From: a virus
Lineage: Duplodnaviria > Heunggongvirae > Uroviricota > Caudoviricetes
Virus record (IMG/VR): IMGVR_UViG_2541047124_000005
Span: 1 to 10,475 of that record
Direction: 5' to 3' (one strand)
DNA length: 10,475 nucleotides
The notes under the pieces were generated by a model. The model was not told the DNA's origin. It saw only the letters and a program-made list of their open reading frames with translations, and searched no databases. The translations under genes were made by a program, and so were the position numbers. Positions 90-10,475 of this stretch are shown here, one piece after another; the first letter of the stretch is position 1, and every line of letters starts with the position of its first letter.

Positions 90-488
90 TCACATCTCGT
101 AGGTAATTTTCCACAGGAGATCTGCCGATCCCCACATCATAAACTCATCATCCCGGCGGTAGTCATACCCCTGAAGATTCATCTTCAGCAGTAATGCACT
201 GAGCCCGGGAACTGCCTCCAGCGCAGGAAGAATTTTTTCTTCCATCCACATATCCAGTGCCGAGTCCGGTTCTTTTGCCCTGAGAAAAACCTCAATATGC
301 AGTGTCGCCTCCCAGGTTCCCTCATCAACGAACTCGTCAGCAGCAGACGCATCTGTCAGGTAAACAGCAACAGCAGGCAGTTCCTGTTCATCAATAAAAA
401 CCGGGCGACCGTCAAACCAGCTCACCCTCTCAGAAATATTTTCTTTCAGGGCAGACAGAACTGCCGCCCGTATTTCACGGTGTTTCAT
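90..488 (-). CDS. U: tail terminator protein (lambda gpU family)
   Basis: 132-aa [20 protein letters not shown]...[26 protein letters not shown] aligns along its length with lambda gpU as recalled (MKHTELRAAVLDALEKH...GYDYRRDD...ITYEM). A GGGAGG Shine-Dalgarno lies 4-5 nt upstream of the ATG at 488. Position between Z and V homologs is as expected. Confidence 0.9.
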
Positions 489-1814: not shown

Positions 1815-3770
1815 TCAGGCCACCGACGAACGCACCAGCCCGCGCCAGTCAAGTGGTGCCACTCCGGCATCAATACGGATTTTTGTGGCAATGCCGTCAG
1901 TGGTGAAACCTTCCTGCTGATCAATGTATGGCGTGTCCACACCATCCAGCCAGGCCACTTCAATGGTGTCAGTGCCCTGTGCCGCCGCCAGATACCAGGT
2001 TTTCGGGTCTGCCGCATCAAGACGCGCTTCTGCAATCACCTCAGCAAAGTTCTGGATAGGGTTAATGACACCGGCGTTTGCATCCGCCCCTTTCACACTG
2101 GCCGATTTGATGGTCTGGTTCGCCACCGTCTCCAGTGCCACCGGTACCAGCATAAAGGCCGGACGGATATTCAGGGCACGATCGCCTTCTTTCTGCAGGC
2201 GCATCATCTGACGGGCCGCATCCAGTCCGGAAACGGAGATCCCCCCGGTGGCAATATTTTTGTGATCGGCATGGAACAGCGCCTTACCGTCGGACAGTTT
2301 CGGGTTATCCGTCAGCACCTTGTAGACCAGGTCACCAATCGTTGCCTTCGCCGCACGCCCCATCTTCATCGGCACGTCCACCAGCATATTCAGATCATCA
2401 TTGATAATGGCCTGGCGGGTGATGGAGAAAATCTCCCCGTAAGTGGCCAGTGCAATGGTCTCCTTGCGATCTGAGGTGGTGATGTATTTATACTCCGCCC
2501 CCTCACGAACCTGGCGCAGAGAACCAAAACCGCCCATCCCCACGCGATACGCTGTTTTGAAGTCTGACAGGCGTCCCTTACGGGTCCACTTCTGGAAGGT
2601 TTCTTCTGATTCCTCCCAGCCCTGGATCAGCCCCTTGTTCGACACATCCAGCAGAATATTGCCAAAATCAGAGGTGCTGTGCGTCAGCGCCAGCCCGACC
2701 ATCTGCATGGGGTTATAACTGGCCACCCCAATACCGCGCTCCGTCAGTGACATGCGAGCCCATTCACGCAGGGTCATCCCGTTATAGGCGTTATCCTTCT
2801 CGACATTTTCAAATCCGGCACGGGCCAGCATCGCCTGGCGGATCCCGTCCCCCACAAAATTGCCGTTTCCGGCATAAATATGGGCCGGTGTATTTTTGTT
2901 GGTCGGCGAGGACTCCTTGCCCATTTCATTCAGCAGTCGTTCACGGGCCATTTCCAGCGAACAGTCAGGATCAGCCACGCACTGTGCCTGAAGCGTCTGA
3001 TAGCGACCGCCGAACATGGCAAACAGATCGTTAATGCCTGACATGCGGGCTTTCTGTTCTGCCATAACGCGGGCGCGAATGGTCGCCTCATCAGACACTG
3101 CCGGTACCGGTGATGGTTCTGTTACCGCCGGTGCAGGGATTGTCACTGTGGTATCACGCGGGGCACTGTTGCGTGGCGGAGTAATCATGTTTCGGATGGA
3201 TTCCGGCATCTTTTTAAATTCCTCTGTACGTTTTGACTGAATACATGCCATTGCCTCAACGGCGGGTGTCACCTGGTCAGCAAATCCGTGTGCCAGACAT
3301 TCGGCACCGGACATCCAGGTCTCATCCGCCAGCATGGCAGCAATTTCATCGGTGGTTTTCCCGGTTTTCTGTGCATAAGCGGGTAACAGAACCGCCTCAA
3401 CTTTATCGAGCAGGTCGGCATAGGTGCGCATGTCCTCCGCATCACCGCCCGTAAAGCCAAATGGTTTATGAATCATCATGAAGGAGTTTTCCGGCATAAT
3501 GACCGGTTTTCCCACCATCGCAATGACCGACGCCATTGACGCCGCCACACCGTCGACATAAACGGTAATGGACGCACCATGTGTTTTCAGTGCATTAAAA
3601 ATGGCGATGCCTTCAAAGACATCGCCACCCGGTGAATTGATATTGAGATTAATGTGGGTGATATCGCCCAGTGCATTCAGATCACTGATAAACTGCTTCG
3701 CTGTAACACCCCAGAAACCAATCTCGTCATAAATATAAATATCCGCGTCACTCTGGTGACCAGCCTGCAT
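1815..3770 (-). CDS. prohead protease (ClpP/S14-like) fused to major capsid protein
   Basis: One long ORF. The N-terminal region carries a ClpP-like serine protease fold, including a GVAASMAS block (ClpP-type active-site Ser context) and a downstream MIHKP His. A Pro/Ala-rich linker follows (PAPAVTEPSPVPAV), then a roughly 400-aa C-terminal region typical of phage major head proteins. The track ORF begins at 4031, but I place the start at ATG 3770..3768 (MQAGHQSDADIYIYDEIG...), 13 nt after the portal stop, because the upstream 87 codons overlap the portal gene. Confidence 0.85.
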   Translation of the reverse strand: MQAGHQSDADIYIYDEIGFWGVTAKQFISDLNALGDITHINLNINSPGGDVFEGIAIFNALKTHGASITVYVDGVAASMASVIAMVGKPVIMPENSFMMIHKPFGFTGGDAEDMRTYADLLDKVEAVLLPAYAQKTGKTTDEIAAMLADETWMSGAECLAHGFADQVTPAVEAMACIQSKRTEEFKKMPESIRNMITPPRNSAPRDTTVTIPAPAVTEPSPVPAVSDEATIRARVMAEQKARMSGINDLFAMFGGRYQTLQAQCVADPDCSLEMARERLLNEMGKESSPTNKNTPAHIYAGNGNFVGDGIRQAMLARAGFENVEKDNAYNGMTLREWARMSLTERGIGVASYNPMQMVGLALTHSTSDFGNILLDVSNKGLIQGWEESEETFQKWTRKGRLSDFKTAYRVGMGGFGSLRQVREGAEYKYITTSDRKETIALATYGEIFSITRQAIINDDLNMLVDVPMKMGRAAKATIGDLVYKVLTDNPKLSDGKALFHADHKNIATGGISVSGLDAARQMMRLQKEGDRALNIRPAFMLVPVALETVANQTIKSASVKGADANAGVINPIQNFAEVIAEARLDAADPKTWYLAAAQGTDTIEVAWLDGVDTPYIDQQEGFTTDGIATKIRIDAGVAPLDWRGLVRSSVA

Positions 3771-3783
3771 CCTGAACCAGGAA

Positions 3784-5293
3784 TTATTCTTCGGACTGGT
3801 CGTCGGTGTGCTGCGGCTCCTGTCGTTTCGTTGCGGCACTGCTGCCTCCTTTATCACTGGCCGGATCGGTATCAAATACCAGATCCAGCTTGCGGTTTTC
3901 ATCAATTTCGGCCTTGCGCCGACGTTTGACATCATCCGGATTACGACCACCTGCACGTACCCAGTCTGATTCTGTCGCTGCTCCACCACGAATCTGAATT
4001 TTCCAGGCCTCAGCCTCCTTAACAGGGTCAATCCACGGCATCACCGGTCCGGAATACACCGCGGTATACAGTGAAGAACGGTCAAGATCGCGGGGTAGCC
4101 TGATAACACCGGATGCCACAGCCTGTTTCAGCCAGGCACGATACATCGGGCGGGTGACGGCACCAATAAACCAGTCCTGCAGGATCAGGTAGCCATCAGT
4201 GGATTCAACCAGCTCCTGACGCTGGGCGCTGTAAGTGCCGTTATAGTTGCGCGCTGTACTGGAAAAAATTCAGACGACTGCCCGCCGCCACGGCACGCAA
4301 CTGACCATTACGAAAAGTTTCAAGGTTAGGATTGGGGCGATCCGACTTCACCATTCCGATTTCTTCGCCGGGTTTCAGATCGTCGTAAATAATGCCTGGC
4401 TGAATGGTAAGCTCGCGTTCCTTATCCTTGCTGCCATTACCATCCGGTTCATAGCTCTGCCCATCGCCTTTCCGGATGTACATCCCCAGAGCAGCGGCGA
4501 TCCTTGCTGCAGTCAGCTCAGAATCCTCATACTCTTTCAGGGCACTGAGGCGGATCAGCACACCGGACAACAAAGACGTCCCGCGCATCTGGTGCAGACG
4601 GCGAACAAATTTAAGATGCAGCATTCGCTCTGCATCCACTTCTTTGGTTTCCATCTGCCGTCCGGATACGGGACGGCTTTTATACACCAGATATTTTTCG
4701 GGACGCCCCCAGTCATCAACAAACACGCCCTGATTCAGCCTGTTGCTCTCATCACTGGTCATGGGAATAAAGTCTGGCTCGAGCGCCTCCAGCCAGAAAT
4801 GAACACCGGCAGAAGGCGTCAGGCTGTTTATGCGCCCGGAAACCATCTGGGCAAACACCTCACCATCGCGCAGCCAGGTACGCAGCATCAGACGTTCCAG
4901 CATCGGACGGGTAAACTGCCCGGTGACTTCCGGACTGACAGACCATTCACTCCATCGGGTGCGTATCTCCGCTGCCAGATCACGGGCAATGGCCCCATTG
5001 CGTAATACCGGATGTGGCTCGACAATAATCCCGTTTTTCCCCACCACCCGTTCTTCCAGCTTGTCAAATACACCAATAACCAGATCGTGGTTGTTATCAA
5101 GGTAACGGGCCTGCTCACGTAACGACACGGCCCCGTACTGGCTTAACTGGTCGGCAGTTCGGTTTTCCCGCCGGGCTTTGTGTGTCCGCGTCGTTTTTAC
5201 GGCCTCATAAGCCTGGATCACCGCACGGGAACGCAGCCTTGCCGCTTTCCATCCTGGTGAAAAAACGCCAATCACATCATCAAGAATTGCCAT
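3784..5293 (-). pseudogene. portal protein (lambda gpB family), reading frame interrupted by an apparent +1 insertion in a homopolymer run (A6 on plus strand at 4263..4268); genuine inactivation versus sequencing error cannot be decided from sequence
   Basis: Two consecutive track ORFs (4241..5365, 374 aa, and 3784..4146, 120 aa) are in different frames. The upstream frame ends ...AVAAGSRLNFFQYSAQL*. Deleting one T from the T6 run on the gene strand gives ...RLNFSSTARNYNGTYSAQRQELVES... and runs continuously into the downstream ORF, giving a protein of about 502 aa. The restored junction resembles the corresponding lambda gpB segment as I recall it (...SYEQLSRNYAQMSYSTARAS...). Start placed at ATG 5293..5291 (MAILDDVIG...), overlapping the gpW stop as TGATG. 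Confidence 0.8.
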
Positions 5294-5505
5294 CAGAACC
5301 TCGCCAGCCGGTACCCGGGATGCCCCCGTCGTCGTGTAATCAGAGCCGCAAGGCGGCGCTCCCACTCCTGCCGTCCCTGCCGGATCTCAGATAAGTTTTC
5401 CATGGTCATCTGCTGACCATTAAAGGTGACGGATTTTCCGTCCAGCACCGCCATTTCAGCTTCCGTATAACGCTGAATCATGGCTTCGATATCATTCTGG
5501 TTCAT
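5293..5505 (-). CDS. W: head-tail joining / head completion protein (lambda gpW family)
   Basis: Small ORF between terL and portal, as in lambda (A-W-B). The C-terminus ...ITRRRGHPGYRLARF resembles the lambda gpW C-terminus as recalled (...QRRRGPAGFYV). Start chosen at the third codon (ATG 5505..5503, protein MNQNDIEAM...) because GGAGG lies 6 nt upstream of it; the track start at 5511 abuts the SD. Confidence 0.7.
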   Translation of the reverse strand: MNQNDIEAMIQRYTEAEMAVLDGKSVTFNGQQMTMENLSEIRQGRQEWERRLAALITRRRGHPGYRLARF

Positions 5506-7604
5506 AACCATCCTCCGGAAGTCAGCCAGGGGTTAACATCGTCAGTTACTGTTTTCTTCCGTTTTTGTTTTTTAACAGGCGTGGATACCGGTTCCGGTGA
5601 GGGTGACGGTTCGGTACTGTCCGGGACACTCTCCAGCCAGGTTTCCCGGCTCGCCCACCCCGGTGCATCCGGCCAGCGGATCTTTTCGTATCCATGCAGA
5701 ATGACCAGAGCCTCGGCATACACCATCAGGTCAAAAGCTTCGTTGGCACCGCGACCCGGCTTACTCCATTTCCCGTCACTACTCCGCTCTTCATACGTCA
5801 GTTCGTCGTAAAACCAGCTCCCCAGCCAGTCAGGGAAATGCACATAGCCGGGACCTGGAGAGTCACGCCATAACGCGTTATTCACCCGGTCTTTCAGTGC
5901 ATCCGTCTGAAGAAGCCAGAGCGGCACATCACCTGCGGCCTGCGCCCGTCGGCCCGTTCGTCCGGTGTTATCAGGGAATGTACGGGTGATCAGTTTTGCG
6001 CGCCGGATGCTGTCGCCCTTAAACAGGTAAATACGTTTACCAAGGCCATCACGACGGCAACGACGCCAGAATTTATAGGCATTATCAGTGACCCCGTCTT
6101 CACCGCCGGAGTCCACCGCCATTGCCATCAGTCGCATTTGTTGAGAAGGATCGGAGGCCAGCGGCCAGCTTTTATGAAAAACATCCGTCAGCAGGACATC
6201 CCAGTCTTCCGGATAGCTGGCCGGATCAATTCGCTGGCTCTCACCGTCGCTGTCACCGCGCAATGACTGCGTGATGTTGTAACGATCAATAATCCAGCGT
6301 TCGCCACGGCTGCCATAGCCCGTTACCTGAACCACAAAACGGCGATGACGTCCCGCCTGCACATCCACTGTCGCCACAAGGAAATTAACGCCATCCGGCA
6401 CACTGCTGGAAGGAACTGGCTCTGCCCGCTGCTCAAGCAGTTCACTTTTTCGTTGCTCCATGCTGGCGCGGGGAAGATAAGGTAATCCCCAGTCGGTATT
6501 GATAACCGTCTTGAGTGTTTCTTCACTTCCGGTTGTCTCGTATTCCTGTTCTGCAGTAAGCAGTTTGTAAACGAGTTGCGAGAGTGTCTGGTAAGCAGCT
6601 GCCGGACCCTCCATCCAGAATGACGCAATACGTGAGCGTCGGGGATCACCATAACGACTACCATCCGCATTGATGGATTCACCATCCCGCAACCAGACCC
6701 CACGTCCGTTCAGCTCACGTTTTTGTTCAGGCATAATCCGTCCTGAACAGGAAGGACACTGAATATAAGCCGCCTCACTTGCCAGCACGGGATCGGCAAT
6801 ATCACGGAAACCAGCAACCACATCGCCGCAGGGCTGAAAATACTCACCACAGTGTGGACAGGGCCAGTACCAGCGACGGCGATCGCCACGGTTATAGAGC
6901 GACAGTATCCCCGTGGTTGGTGGAGCCTCATGCGGTGAAGTCCGTCGCCATTTCACATCCTTCACATCCCTGCCGGGGGAACTCTCCACCAGCGTCATAC
7001 CACTGGACATAAATGTGGTGGTACGTTTTGAGGCAAGAGAGAAGGCATCCCCCTCGCCATCAATATCTTCCGGAAAACGGTCATAATCCGTCAGCGCCAC
7101 GCATTTATAATCTGATGAGGACATGATATTGACTGACGGCCAGCCGATTTTCAGGTAGTTGCCAGCAAGGAATGTTCTGTCATAAACGTTGTTGTCATTT
7201 TTGTTCGGACTCAGGCGACTGACCACTTCCGGGCTGACGCGAAACGTTCTGGCGAGTCGTTTTTTGGAGTGTTCGCGGGCTTTTTCCTCCGTCATCTGAA
7301 TGATCAGCATATCCGCAGGATCGCAAATCACGTTGTAAATCACCCAGCCGTCAATCAGGCCGATAGTCTTGCCGGTTCGTGCCGGGCCAACAAATATCAC
7401 TGCGTCGTATTCACGCGAGGCCAGGCAGTTCATCGGCTCAATAACATACGGTGCCACCAGCGGATCCCACGGGACTGAGTTCCCGGCCCCCATGGGCACC
7501 CGCATATACTGAGCAACGGCATCAGCAACCCGCATTCGTCTCGGTGCGCGAAGGATATAACCTGAATCGGTTCGTGCTGCCTTTGCGGTTTCCTGATTCA
7601 GCAT
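5502..7604 (-). CDS. A: terminase large subunit (lambda gpA family)
   Basis: 700-aa ORF with a Walker A motif VGPARTGKT (about nt 7365..7388) and a CPHCGE motif matching the ACPHCGE block of lambda gpA. Further blocks resemble gpA as recalled (...WIIDRYNI... versus SWLIDRQII; AFDLMVYAEAL versus ALDCFVYALAAL). The start ATG overlaps the terS stop (TAATG) and is preceded by GGAGGAG. Confidence 0.95.
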   Translation of the reverse strand: MLNQETAKAARTDSGYILRAPRRMRVADAVAQYMRVPMGAGNSVPWDPLVAPYVIEPMNCLASREYDAVIFVGPARTGKTIGLIDGWVIYNVICDPADMLIIQMTEEKAREHSKKRLARTFRVSPEVVSRLSPNKNDNNVYDRTFLAGNYLKIGWPSVNIMSSSDYKCVALTDYDRFPEDIDGEGDAFSLASKRTTTFMSSGMTLVESSPGRDVKDVKWRRTSPHEAPPTTGILSLYNRGDRRRWYWPCPHCGEYFQPCGDVVAGFRDIADPVLASEAAYIQCPSCSGRIMPEQKRELNGRGVWLRDGESINADGSRYGDPRRSRIASFWMEGPAAAYQTLSQLVYKLLTAEQEYETTGSEETLKTVINTDWGLPYLPRASMEQRKSELLEQRAEPVPSSSVPDGVNFLVATVDVQAGRHRRFVVQVTGYGSRGERWIIDRYNITQSLRGDSDGESQRIDPASYPEDWDVLLTDVFHKSWPLASDPSQQMRLMAMAVDSGGEDGVTDNAYKFWRRCRRDGLGKRIYLFKGDSIRRAKLITRTFPDNTGRTGRRAQAAGDVPLWLLQTDALKDRVNNALWRDSPGPGYVHFPDWLGSWFYDELTYEERSSDGKWSKPGRGANEAFDLMVYAEALVILHGYEKIRWPDAPGWASRETWLESVPDSTEPSPSPEPVSTPVKKQKRKKTVTDDVNPWLTSGGWL

Positions 7605-8095
7605 TACTCCTCCTGCTGTAATTCCTCCTCATCATCCGCACCTGCTTCGGTCACCCGCAGGGCTATCTGATCGCGCAGATCATCAATAATGGACTGAACA
7701 CGGCTCACAGCGGCAGGCTGCAGACCACAGTCACGTTCCAGAATATCCGGTAATGTCTCCAGCACCTGCACGACCGCTTTTGCCCAGATGGCAAACTCCC
7801 GTCTGACATCACTGGCCGGAATGAGTTGTGCCGTTTCCTGTTCGAACTTAAGACGCTCACGTTCAGACTGATACCAGGCTTTGCGTTCATGTGGATCCAT
7901 TTCGCCCTCAGCAACCGGCGGTGGTAACCCCATAAATTCAGTCAGAATATCGGTCAACCGGTATAGCTTGAGTTTGTCATGTCCACCAGCGGGACGAATG
8001 TTTTTCAGTCTTGCCACGACAGTCTGGCGGTGCAGACCAGATAAAGCCGCCAGTTGATTAATATTCAGCACCAGGTTTTTCAACTCATGATCCAT
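7604..8095 (-). CDS. terminase small subunit (Nu1-like, N-terminal HTH DNA-binding domain)
   Basis: 163-aa ORF immediately upstream of, and overlapping, terL. N-terminal LNINQLAALSGLHRQTVVARLKN is a helix-turn-helix-like segment as in Nu1-type small terminases; the C-terminus is acidic (DDEEELQQEE). GGAGG lies 4-5 nt upstream of the ATG at 8095. The candidate cos site lies about 180-200 bp upstream, the same spacing as in lambda. Confidence 0.8.
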   Translation of the reverse strand: MDHELKNLVLNINQLAALSGLHRQTVVARLKNIRPAGGHDKLKLYRLTDILTEFMGLPPPVAEGEMDPHERKAWYQSERERLKFEQETAQLIPASDVRREFAIWAKAVVQVLETLPDILERDCGLQPAAVSRVQSIIDDLRDQIALRVTEAGADDEEELQQEE

Positions 8096-8104
8096 ATTTC
8101 CTCC

Positions 8105-8300
8105 GGAGAGCTTTAAACATGCATCGTGCGAACAACTTTAAGAAAACGCGTTCGATGTCGAACAAAAAACACTCAATTCGACATACAAAAAACAAATAAC
8201 CATTAATAATCAATAAGATGCAAAGATGATGGTGGCCGATAAAAATGCAAAAACTAGCCTTTTTCCGCGACGCTCCCGCCCCGTGGCAGGCCACCCCACC
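8105..8300 (-). other. candidate cos site: cosN-like GC-rich core (plus 8265..8286) plus AT-rich cosB-like region with TCGA-containing repeats (plus 8110..8200)
   Basis: On the gene strand the sequence reads ...CCTCCCGGTGGGGTGGCCTGCCACG GGGCGGGAGCGT CGCGGAAAAAGG..., which parallels the lambda cos junction as I recall it (...TTTCCGGTGATCCGACAGGTTACG GGGCGGCGACCT CGCGGGTTTTCGC...). The 12-mer GGGCGGGAGCGT (plus 8270..8281) differs from the lambda cohesive end at 4 positions. Between it and terS lies an AT-rich stretch with A-tracts and repeated TTCGA/TCGAAC motifs (8126..8136, 8150..8163, 8177..8193), including the palindrome GTTCGA-TG-TCGAAC, plausibly terS-binding R elements. Confidence 0.45.
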
Positions 8301-8703
8301 GGGAGGAGCCGTCAGCCTGAAAGCCATGACGAACGTCTGATACAGCCCTTGCATGAATGGCATCGGGATAATCCAGAAAGGAATAGCATCGACCCACAAG
8401 AATCTGTGTGAGTGTCCTGTTTCTTCCACCCCCGCACAGGACTGGCGAGCATGAGGGACAAACCCGCGAATCATTAGCGCGGTAAAAACCCGGTGTGCAT
8501 CGTTTTTGATTATTCCCGCACACTCGCGCAGAAGGAGTTCCCCGTCGGGCTACGGTCATGGTTAATGCGGGAATACAGCGACGATACAGCGCATGATGTG
8601 TCAGGCTTGAATACCTTTATCCGTTAAAAGGGATATCAGTTAAGTTATCCCGTGTAGGGTATAAGCCATTATCAAGCCCACCAGTAGATGGGCTTTGTAA
8701 TGG

Positions 8704-8961
8704 CTACTTCGCTTTTGCTTCCGCTCGCTTACGCCGGCGCTCTTCTTTCCTCTCGGCTTTTGCCATGTCCATGAATGCCTGCATGATCGAGTTCCGCATC
8801 ATGTAGCTAACAAAGTGATGATTGACACAGCCGTTGAGGCGCAGCTGCTCGCCAAACTCATCCACCGAGGCCAATGCTTCCATCATACCCTTCTCGCCTT
8901 TCATGAACTCTGAGAAGTCGCGCCCCGCTCTGGAGGCGCATTCAATGACACGATCACTCAT
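8704..8961 (-). CDS. hypothetical small protein (85 aa), or frameshifted C-terminal part of the upstream KilA-N-like gene
   Basis: ORF MSDRVIECASRAGRDFSEFMKGEKGMM...AKAERKEERRRKRAEAKAK with a highly charged Lys/Arg/Glu-rich C-terminus. Its ATG (8961..8959) overlaps the stop of the upstream ORF as ATGA. No family recognised with confidence. Confidence 0.4.
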   Translation of the reverse strand: MSDRVIECASRAGRDFSEFMKGEKGMMEALASVDEFGEQLRLNGCVNHHFVSYMMRNSIMQAFMDMAKAERKEERRRKRAEAKAK

Positions 8962-9455
8962 CCCGGAAGCCCGGGGATCGAAATCTGCAACTGGTTAGCC
9001 AGGGAGTTAATTTCAGCGATCAAACCAGGTTTCGTGTAGCGCCATGCCGCGAGGCCTTGTCCACAGAAGCTCGCCATGTCTTTTTTCTGATCAAACTCAT
9101 GACATTTCATGTTGAGCTGCGCACTTAAGCTGTTCCGATGATGAAGCTCTCCGGTGAAGTAATCATCGAGGACTTTATAGGCTGCATATTTAAATCCGGG
9201 GTTTAGCCATGCTGCGTAATCATAAGCAACGAACTTTCCGCCATAAGTTCCACCGTGCGCACCGCGTTCCGTAAAAACCACAGATTCGTGGTTTTTCTCC
9301 AGCTCAGCCAAGAACTCTTTGGTCTGCTTGTTTCGCAGGTAGTGGTACGGAGATTCAGATTCACTTTTACCACTGGCTTTCCACATATCAGTGAGGCAGA
9401 TCATGCCATCTTCACCGATACGGATTGGTTGATTGAAGAGGGTTAATGATTTCAT
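8958..9455 (-). CDS. KilA-N domain-like protein (accessory gene between the lysis cassette and cos)
   Basis: 165-aa ORF MKSLTLFNQPIRIGEDGMICLTDMWKASGKSESESPYHYLRNKQTKEFLAELEK...GGTYGGKFVAYDYAAWLNPGF... The pattern (segment ending in G-x-I/Y, then L-T/N-D-hydrophobic-x-K-A-x-GK, then W/YLR-x-x-x-T-x-EF, then a G-T-W/Y-hydrophobic...A-x-W-x-x-P-x-F block) matches my recollection of the KilA-N/APSES-type domain. AGG lies 8 nt upstream of the ATG. Confidence 0.5.
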   Translation of the reverse strand: MKSLTLFNQPIRIGEDGMICLTDMWKASGKSESESPYHYLRNKQTKEFLAELEKNHESVVFTERGAHGGTYGGKFVAYDYAAWLNPGFKYAAYKVLDDYFTGELHHRNSLSAQLNMKCHEFDQKKDMASFCGQGLAAWRYTKPGLIAEINSLANQLQISIPGLPG

Positions 9456-9657: not shown

Positions 9658-10095
9658 TTATTTCAGGCATTGCGTCCTGATGTACTCCTGCAGGTAGTTA
9701 ACCTGCGCGGTTATCTTGTCGATTCCACCTCGGAGACGGTAATAATTGAGTTCAGCATCTGCTGTAAGTCCTGGGCTTTCTCCATCGCCCATGCTGCTGG
9801 CTCCGGTCGTTGACTTTGCACAGGTGGCGGAGACTTGCAGGCGCTTACGCCCAGCAGAAACATCAGCACGGAGACTTTCGATAGTCGCATTAGCATCAGC
9901 AAGCTCCTTTGTGTATCTGGCGTCAAGTTCTGCTACATCACGTTGCCGCTTCTGCATATCAGCGATGATGGATGTGGCTTTATCGCGCTGCTCTTTGTAG
10001 GCGATGGCGTTATCACGGTAATGATTAACAGCCCATGACAGGCAGGCGATAATGCAGATAACCAGAGCGGAGATAATAACGGTTACCCTGCTCAT
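9658..10095 (-). CDS. Rz: i-spanin Rz (inner-membrane spanin subunit)
   Basis: Translation from ATG 10095..10093 gives [39 protein letters not shown]..., near-identical at the N-terminus to lambda Rz as recalled ([39 protein letters not shown]...). N-terminal TM segment followed by a charged coiled-coil-like region. The track start at 10107 is a GTG with no room for an SD; the ATG at 10095 is preceded by GGGGG at 5 nt and overlaps the endolysin stop (ATGA). Confidence 0.9.
9711..9896 (-). CDS. Rz1: o-spanin Rz1 (outer-membrane lipoprotein), entirely embedded in the +1 frame of Rz
   Basis: Track ORF 9711..9926 lies wholly within Rz in another frame. From the internal Met at 9896 the product is [20 protein letters not shown]|[16 protein letters not shown]...: short basic n-region, hydrophobic core, lipobox-like VSAC, then a Pro-rich mature region as in lambda Rz1. 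Exact start (9896, 9890 or 9926) is uncertain. Confidence 0.7.
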
Positions 10096-10475
10096 TGTTG
10101 CCCCCACAAACAGACTTCACGCTCAATCTCGCGGCGAGTCATCAGCCCTTTCCATTGCTTACCGCCAGCGTATGTCCAGCGCCGTAGCTGATCACATGCG
10201 CCTTTGATATCGCCCTGGTTTATTTTGCGAAGAAGCGTCGATGTTCTGAAATTGCCAGCGCCCACGTTGTAAACGAACGAGTAAAGAGCGCCGCGCGTTG
10301 TTTCCGGTATATCGACGTTGATGTACGGGTTAATTTGTCTGGCGACCGTGGCAAGGTCTTTATTCAGGAGGGCTTTGCATTCTGCTTCGGTATACGTTTT
10401 ACCGGGAATGATGTCTTTTCCGGTGTGTCCGTGACATACAGTCCATACGCCAACGATATCTTTGTATGGTATGTA
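10092..10475 (-). CDS. endolysin, phage lysozyme type (GH24, T4 lysozyme / P21 R family); C-terminal 127 codons only, 5' end beyond the right edge of the window
   Basis: Minus-strand translation from the window edge is open for 127 codons to TGA at 10094..10092: [127 protein letters not shown]. The G[11 protein letters not shown] block and overall layout match the phage lysozyme family (compare P22 gp19 TIGVGHTGK). Not in the ORF track because no start codon lies within the window. Confidence 0.85.

Follow-up and report, generated by a model that had tools for sequence, protein, structure and literature searches.

A probable lambda-type cos site upstream of a DUF1441 small terminase gene in a lambdoid Escherichia coli prophage

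Genes and sequence features around the terminase genes

The window analyzed here, the whole 10,475-nucleotide stretch of IMG/VR record IMGVR_UViG_2541047124_000005, is the late region of a lambdoid prophage with a head of the cdtI/mEp460/Gifsy-2 type. A lysis gene, a KilA-N/ORF11CD3 gene, and a short ORF precede the two terminase genes (Table 1), and about 600 bp without a credible gene separate the 85-amino-acid ORF from terS. Past terL, the minus strand encodes a gpW-like adaptor, a lambda-family portal protein, and a fusion of a ClpP protease with the major capsid protein. The fusion is a single 738-amino-acid ORF (1815..4031, minus strand) that joins a ClpP-like prohead protease to a major capsid domain, an arrangement reported for Gifsy-2-type heads. 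Upstream of terS, a noncoding-looking segment (8414..8700) is ~92% identical in more than 300 records, mostly from Stx-converting and other E. coli phages and including phages with unrelated packaging modules; in phage Ayreon, the equivalent region is annotated with a terminator and a “putative late gene regulator.” A promoter scan found no promoter, and the only match in an Rfam scan of positions 7900 to 9000, a sub-threshold one to a eukaryotic lncRNA, is a chance hit.

The cos site of phage lambda, known from the work of the Feiss and Catalano laboratories, is built in the order cosQ-cosN-I2-cosB. The first-pass annotation of the window had pointed to a divergent counterpart of the lambda cohesive end upstream of terS, and the sequence CCACG/GGGCGGGAGCGT/CGCGG is indeed present on the minus (gene) strand at 8286..8265. 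The lambda sequence used for that comparison is correct: the lambda record opens with GGGCGGCGACCTCGCGGG and closes with ...GGGTCCTTTCCGGTGATCCGACAGGTTACG, the last bases being GGTTACG, and GGGTCCT followed by 23 nt (...TTACG) precedes the end. Set against lambda (GGGCGGGAGCGT versus GGGCGGCGACCT), the window 12-mer is identical at positions 1 to 6, with GGGCGG as the left half in both, and matches at 8 of 12 positions overall; the four differences that had been counted fall at positions 7, 8, 9, and 11. The spacing to terS is also lambda-like, as claimed, with the ATG (8095) at position 187 from the first cosN base versus 191 for lambda nu1.

The segment described as AT rich (8110..8260) has a GC content of 27 to 38% and adjoins a cosQ/cosN zone with 73% GC. 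The palindrome noticed within it (GTTCGATGTCGAAC, 8150..8163) has perfect 6-bp arms and a 2-bp spacer, and a third TTCGAC copy lies at 8177..8182. In a repeat search, the strongest repeat of the region was a perfect 8-nt inverted repeat, ATGTCGAA/TTCGACAT, at 8155-8162 and 8177-8184. The stretch delimited earlier just misses a cosQ-like element (8310..8304), and an R3-like element, CACCATCATC, and an IHF-like site within it had been overlooked.

Table 1. Predicted parts of the cos site and neighboring genes (window coordinates)
Feature	Coordinates	Strand	Remarks
Rz-type lysis gene	10107..9658	-	
KilA-N/ORF11CD3 protein gene	9455..8958	-	
85-aa ORF	8961..8704	-	
cosQ-like heptamer GGCTCCT	8304..8310	-	Ends 22 nt before cosN; canonical form GGGTCCT
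cosQ-cosN spacer CCCGGTGGGGTGGCCTGCCACG	8282..8303	-	Closes with conserved CG before predicted top-strand nick
cosN 12-mer GGGCGGGAGCGT, predicted 12-nt 5' cohesive end	8270..8281	-	Equals bases 1-12 of the cdtI and Tritos records
Predicted nicks	8282/8281 (gene strand); 8269/8270 (+ strand)		Flanking CG
I2-like conserved block CGCGGAAAAAGGCTAGTTTTTG	8248..8269	-	Near-invariant in 48 distinct Enterobacterales cos sequences
Putative R3-like element CACCATCATC	8225..8234	-	+48..+57 from cosN
Putative IHF-like site AATCAATAAGATG (WATCAANNNNTTR, 1 mismatch)	8208..8220	+	Between R3 and R2, at +62
Putative R2-like element ATGTCGAA, inverted (+ strand TTCGACAT)	8177..8184	-	Arm of 8-nt inverted repeat
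Putative R1-like element TTCGACATCGAAC, core TCGACATC at +121..+128	8150..8162	-	Contains the palindrome described earlier
Conserved block AAAGTTGTTCGCACGATGCATGTTTAAA	8112..8139	-	Between R1 and the terS ribosome-binding site
terS, DUF1441, 163 aa	7604..8095	-	Pfam PF07278, 4.6e-44; PHROG 141 “terminase small subunit,” 2.7e-77
terL, gpA family	5502..7604	-	GpA_ATPase PF05876, 9e-72; GpA_nuclease PF20454, 2e-85

Genome ends and conservation of cosQ and cosN

Several deposited phage genomes begin or end at this sequence. The records of cdtI (AB285204) and Tritos (OV696610) both start exactly at GGGCGGGAGCGTCGCGG and open with GGGCGGGAGCGTCGCGGAAAAAGGCTAGTTTTT, which is identical to window positions 8281..8249. 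Both close with ...GGGTCCT(T/C)CCGGTGGGG...CTGCCACG, that is, with GGGTCCT and 22 nt of which the last bases are CCACG. The record of Hafnia phage yong2, whose TerS is 63% identical, opens with CGCGGGAAACGGCTAG, which is position 13, the base after its 12-mer, and ends with GGGTCCT, 22 nt, and then the 12-mer GGGGCAGCGACA. In the record of phage LLS (TerS ~62 to 63% identical), GGGCGGCGCGCT is annotated as a 5' single-stranded cohesive site, which was inferred with help from M. Feiss, citing Vahanian et al. 2017 (PMC12315714). In cdtI, Tritos, LLS, and yong2 alike, GGGTCCT is found 22 nt before cosN. A more distant relative, cyanophage Cr-LKS3, has experimentally determined 5' cohesive ends of 9 nt (GGGCTCGCG); these ends have lambda-like flanks, and its TerS is 37% identical to that of the window.

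The record of mEp460_4F5 (LR595868.1) opens 5 nt to the left of the predicted nick (CCACGGGGCGGGAGCG) and lacks three junction nucleotides (TCG) that are present in all other relatives, which is probably an assembly artifact at physical ends. The cos site of Ayreon is a prediction only, and we found no usable end-mapping statements in the Ayreon, Tritos, and mEp460_4F5 papers. In the literature, the 12-mer GGGCGGGAGCG turned up only in papers on G-quadruplexes and primers that have no bearing on cos. The scan of IMG/VR with the uncut junction recovers intact junctions only, mostly in prophages, and is therefore silent on physical ends.

Taken alone, the 8/12 match to lambda pointed out by the first-pass annotation is at chance level, as sites with at most four mismatches from lambda cosN number 80 in the window versus 78 expected from shuffles; it is the flanks, cosQ, and the comparative data that carry the case. 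The heptamer at the cosQ position matches GGGTCCT at 6 of 7 bases and lies at the expected distance from cosN, a CG precedes each predicted nick (CCACG/GGGC on the gene strand and CCGCG/ACGC on the complement), and the adjacent terL encodes a gpA-family large terminase, as in lambda-like cos phages. If the lambda-like motif were a coincidence, as the chance-level score of the 12-mer would allow, the phage might instead package by a headful (pac) mechanism. We consider this very improbable, given that its TerL belongs to the gpA family, that the composite cosQ/cosN pattern GGNTCCT-N18-24-CG-GGGCGG-N6-CG occurs once in the window and in none of 2,000 shuffles, that several deposited genomes begin or end exactly at the site, and that cohesive ends have been mapped in Cr-LKS3, whose terminase is related. 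Alignment with the cos sites of related phages, which had been proposed as a check, gives matching termini, cosN, and I2-like block and a cosQ-like heptamer. Together with the predicted full lambda cos layout (cosQ, cosN, I2-like block, R3, IHF site, R2, and R1) and the gpA-family terminase, the base-for-base homology to deposited genome termini supports the cos reading. We regard this homology as decisive for the identity of the site, and, on sequence grounds, we put the probability that 8096..8310 (minus strand) is a lambda-type cos of a cdtI/mEp460-like lambdoid E. coli prophage at about 0.9.

Conservation of cosQ, cosN, and the I2-like block extends to about 130 relatives in our comparison sets. 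Among the 79 IMG/VR relatives, cosN is GGGCGGGAGCGT in 69 and carries T12G in 7, and 73 share a cosN-to-ATG spacing of 186. The cosQ position reads GGGTCCT in 70 of these 79 and in 107 of the 115 loci with this exact cosN; the GGCTCCT variant of the window occurs at 8/79 and 3/115 related loci, all with window-type cosB. A profile search with a six-sequence TerS alignment revealed the same layout at 42 loci of other Enterobacterales (Citrobacter, Enterobacter, Klebsiella, Rahnella, Serratia, Providencia, and others): (G/A)GGT(C/A)CT, then 22 nt whose last bases are CACG or CGAG, a 12-mer mostly starting with GGGCGG, and CGCGG(G/A)AA(A/T)(A/C)GGCT(A/G)GTTTT to its right. This right-hand, I2-like block, CGCGG-AAA(A/C)-GGCT(A/G)GTTTT, is conserved from E. 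coli prophages to Cr-LKS3 (CGCGGAAGTCGGCAGTTTTT) and varies less than does the right half of cosN. A 7-nt inverted repeat that brackets cosN (GGTGGCC/GGCCACC) is not conserved in relatives and was dismissed as chance. The cos segment is present in 2,158 of 5,426 complete E. coli genomes, a set in which the whole window was not found at >94% identity over 75% of its length.

To the left of cosQ (GGGTCCT), the sequence is unrelated in several relative loci; thus, the conserved block begins exactly at cosQ. For the same reason, two minus-strand ORFs that cross the cos region (8254..8559 and 8085..8474) were treated as spurious; they have no Pfam match and only fragmentary PHROG matches. ORFs across cosQ/cosN are called hypothetical proteins in some phage records (L102, 604..846; L002, 1689..1937) and are probably spurious as well, since their upstream halves vary among relatives.

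Among lambda-like phages, cosN positions 7 to 12 commonly vary (N15 at 9 and 12; Gifsy-1 at 8, 9, and 11) (PMC4669245). According to the same study (Feiss et al. 2015), conservation is seen in cosQ and in the CG next to each nick. The window differences at positions 7, 8, 9, and 11 fit this published pattern of natural variation. The predicted cohesive end is indeed distinct, as the first-pass annotation proposed, but falls inside known cosN variation, and the feature is an ordinary one, since deposited phage genomes already begin or end at the same cosN allele. What is known of cos packaging is unchanged; cosN variation at positions 7 to 12 and cosQ conservation were already published.

The putative cosB segment and the terminase proteins

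The 48 distinct cos sequences, anchored on cosN, share three conserved islands downstream: a TCATCATC-type element at +43..+52, an inverted TCGACATC or TCATCATC at +95..+99, and a direct TCA(C/T)CATC at +119..+123. In the window, CACCATCATC (+48), an inverted TCGACATA (+97), and TCGACATC (+121) are the counterparts, and because they coincide with the islands, two of the TTCGA copies are likely to be R2- and R1-like elements. The proposal that all three TTCGA repeats are R elements would thus hold for two of them; the third, a palindromic half-site, belongs to an R1 extension found only in this sublineage, the group with 87% identical TerS having GTTCATCACTAAC in its place. Elements of the R3 type (TCATCATC) lie at +43..+52 in LLS, yong2, Fels-1, and the loci L109, L110, and L115, and inverted R2 elements (TCGACATC or TCATCATC) lie at +95..+99 in LLS, yong2, Fels-1, L110, and L115; lambda R3 is at a similar position in the lambda sequence. 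The R3-like element of the window fits the family core less well (CCATCATC versus TCATCATC).

Taken alone, the match to the IHF consensus is not significant (5 in the window versus 6.8 expected). However, a match with at most one mismatch is present in 33 of the 48 distinct relatives, 30 of them at +60..+64 and in the same orientation, and it is perfect in cdtI and 4F5. The order of elements in lambda cosB is R3, I1, inverted R2, and R1 (PMC4669245), and the window cosB follows this layout, with putative R elements and a putative IHF site. The block at 8112..8139 is near-invariant between the groups with 100% and 87% identical TerS and absent from the short (129-nt) LLS-type cos; its role could be that of one more TerS site, the fourth, or of an element acting in translation. 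The 28-nt sequence of this block, AAAGTTGTTCGCACGATGCATGTTTAAA, includes a further TTGTTCG motif. A cosB layout for a DUF1441 TerS appears not to have been described experimentally before, and the one seen here follows the lambda plan.

The palindrome GTTCGA-TG-TCGAAC and its neighbors might instead form a transcriptional element upstream of terS, such as a weak terminator or attenuator hairpin or an operator. A terminator scan has a match at 8164..8149 (TGTTCGACATCGAACG, then CGTTTTCTTA), although one such match is expected by chance in the region, and the stem is 6 bp long with three GC pairs. Furthermore, the palindrome is conserved neither in the group with 87% identical TerS nor in the LLS type, both of which keep the R1 (+119..123) and inverted R2 (+95..99) cores. 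These observations make a transcriptional role improbable and favor candidate TerS sites.

TerL has 25% identity to lambda gpA (E value of 3e-19, BLASTP) and is 87.5% identical to the TerL of cdtI, whereas TerS is only 42% identical to the cdtI TerS. Between the window and cdtI, the spacer, cosN, and the I2-like block are identical to about +34, and the cosB sequences beyond are unrelated; three cosB classes are found downstream among the 115 IMG/VR loci with this exact cosN. A shared cosN/I2 region and TerL combined with unrelated cosB and divergent TerS fits a division of labor, with cosQ/cosN/I2 recognized by TerL and cosB by TerS.

The small terminase had been called non-lambda by the first-pass annotation, and rightly so: TerS is a DUF1441 protein without sequence similarity to Nu1, having no Pfam Nu1 match and no BLASTP alignment to Nu1. 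An hhalign comparison with Nu1 gave a probability of 11.6%, in an alignment that sets LNINQLAALSGLHRQTV over the Nu1 helix-turn-helix. An AlphaFold2 model of TerS (41 sequences, pLDDT of 81) has a beta-alpha-alpha-beta-beta-alpha arrangement at residues 9 to 54, followed by long helices. The best Foldseek matches in the PDB are the MerR-family proteins BmrR, MtaN, BldC, and RacA, together with 6hn7_B, from a study of PICI and helper-phage TerS, but all are weak, with E values of at least 0.1 at probabilities of 0.95 to 0.99 over ~50 residues. The N-terminal domain may be a MerR-like winged helix-turn-helix, on fold evidence that is no more than suggestive.

Predicted cleavage, related systems, and the state of this copy

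We infer the nick positions and the binding of TerS and IHF at the window cos by homology with lambda. IHF would bend the AT-rich DNA between R3 and R2, and the gpA-family large terminase would thereby be positioned on cosN. Its two nicks, separated by 12 bp, would follow the CG at 8283..8282 in the gene strand and the complementary CG in the opposite strand, leaving 12-nt 5' overhangs, GGGCGGGAGCGT at the left end and ACGCTCCCGCCC at the right end. Packaging would run toward terS/terL until the next cos is reached; the terminal cut made there would require cosQ, the heptamer that lies 22 nt upstream of cosN.

The window cos shares with that of lambda a cosQ-type heptamer 22 to 23 nt upstream of cosN, a CG before each predicted nick, the left half GGGCGG of cosN, the CGCGG right flank, the predicted R3-IHF-R2(inverted)-R1 layout, a similar cosN-terS distance (187 versus 191), and a gpA-family TerL. 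It differs in cosN positions 7, 8, 9, and 11, in its cosQ (GGCTCCT), and in its R core, which is TC(R)NCATC rather than of the CGTTTCC type; in addition, its DUF1441 TerS is unlike Nu1, and its TerL is only 25% identical to gpA. In cdtI and Tritos, the cosQ spacer, cosN, and I2-like block are identical to those of the window from about -22 to +34 and TerL is 87.5% identical, while no relation is seen in cosB past +34, identity in TerS is only 42%, and cosQ is the canonical GGGTCCT. The cos of the mEp213/LLS type (GGGCGGCGCGCT, PMC12315714) is alike in its DUF1441 TerS, cosQ-type heptamer, flanks, I2-like block, and R3/R2/R1 offsets. However, it differs at cosN positions 7 to 11 and has a compact cosB, with 129 nt from cosN to the ATG and R1 abutting the start codon, and it lacks the conserved block found at window 8112..8139. 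Fels-1 and Gifsy-2 of Salmonella also combine a DUF1441 TerS with a gpA TerL. The Fels-1 cosN, GGGCGGCAGCGG, has two differences from that of the window, and TCATCATC occurs there as an R3/R2/R1 triplet, with R3 at +47, inverted R2 at +95, and R1 at +119; in Gifsy-2, AGTGTCGAA and TTCGACACT form an inverted pair. In both, the cosQ position reads AGGTACT, unlike that of the window, and the R-element sequences differ.

Lambda, cdtI, Tritos, LLS, yong2, and almost all relatives have G as the third base of cosQ, as does AGGTACT, the variant in Fels-1 and Gifsy-2; the window-type subset aside, it is G in every sequence examined. The window cosQ, GGCTCCT, departs from this near-invariant form, and the viable phage PhiR55_1, which is 98.7% identical over the cos region, keeps GGGTCCT. 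The portal gene is also split between different frames on the minus strand, with 5365..4241 corresponding to positions 7 to 377 of PHROG 21 and 4146..3784 to positions 413 to 529, which reflects either a frameshift (a pseudogene in a defective prophage) or a sequencing error. Together, the atypical cosQ and the frameshifted portal gene mean that the prophage may be defective, and, given a portal gene in two frames, it may not package anything itself. The site could accordingly be a decayed, nonfunctional relic, a true cos by descent that no longer terminates packaging or that is used only in trans by a co-resident terminase.

Many O157:H7 chromosomes carry the exact 235-nt cos segment, at 100% identity, beside bioA/ybhB, where it lies next to a truncated terS in what looks like a remnant of Sp3, and Sp3 is neither excised nor packaged in strain Sakai (PMC2669165). 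Use in trans has a precedent in the terminase-defective Sp4, which is proposed to be packaged by the Sp14 terminase in O157 (PMC2669165), where the putative cos sites of lambdoid prophages had already been aligned with that of lambda (PMC2669165). Against decay, cosN, the I2-like block, cosB, terS, and terL are intact in the window, and the portal frameshift could be a sequencing error. Weighing these points, we think it rather unlikely that the copy is such a relic. The site is a cos by descent, and its function in this prophage is uncertain.

As a lambda-type cos, the site would establish how a very common E. coli/Shigella prophage family packages its DNA (by cos, with predicted 12-nt 5' ends) and where its genomes end. 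This could be of use in annotating prophage ends and in predicting which defective prophages or islands are packaged in trans by co-resident terminases, as proposed for Sp4 and Sp14. A broader idea, which we offer tentatively and at somewhat less than even odds, is that DUF1441 TerS proteins, without Nu1 similarity, use an R3-IHF-R2(inverted)-R1 cosB geometry measured from a near-unchanged cosQ/cosN/I2 module, from E. coli to cyanophage, and that GGCTCCT, the allele shared by the window and the O157:H7 Sp3-like remnant, may be a naturally occurring termination-defective cosQ mutation. If this is true, the DUF1441 family would be a natural test bed for TerS-cosB specificity evolving independently of TerL-cosN. 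In the remnant of E. coli O157:H7 PV15-279 (locus L146, NZ_AP018488.1, 892458-906692), the identical cos segment is followed by a terS that breaks off after 336 nt; tail-fiber fragments and the effector genes nleB2, nleC, nleH1, and nleD stand in place of the head and tail genes.
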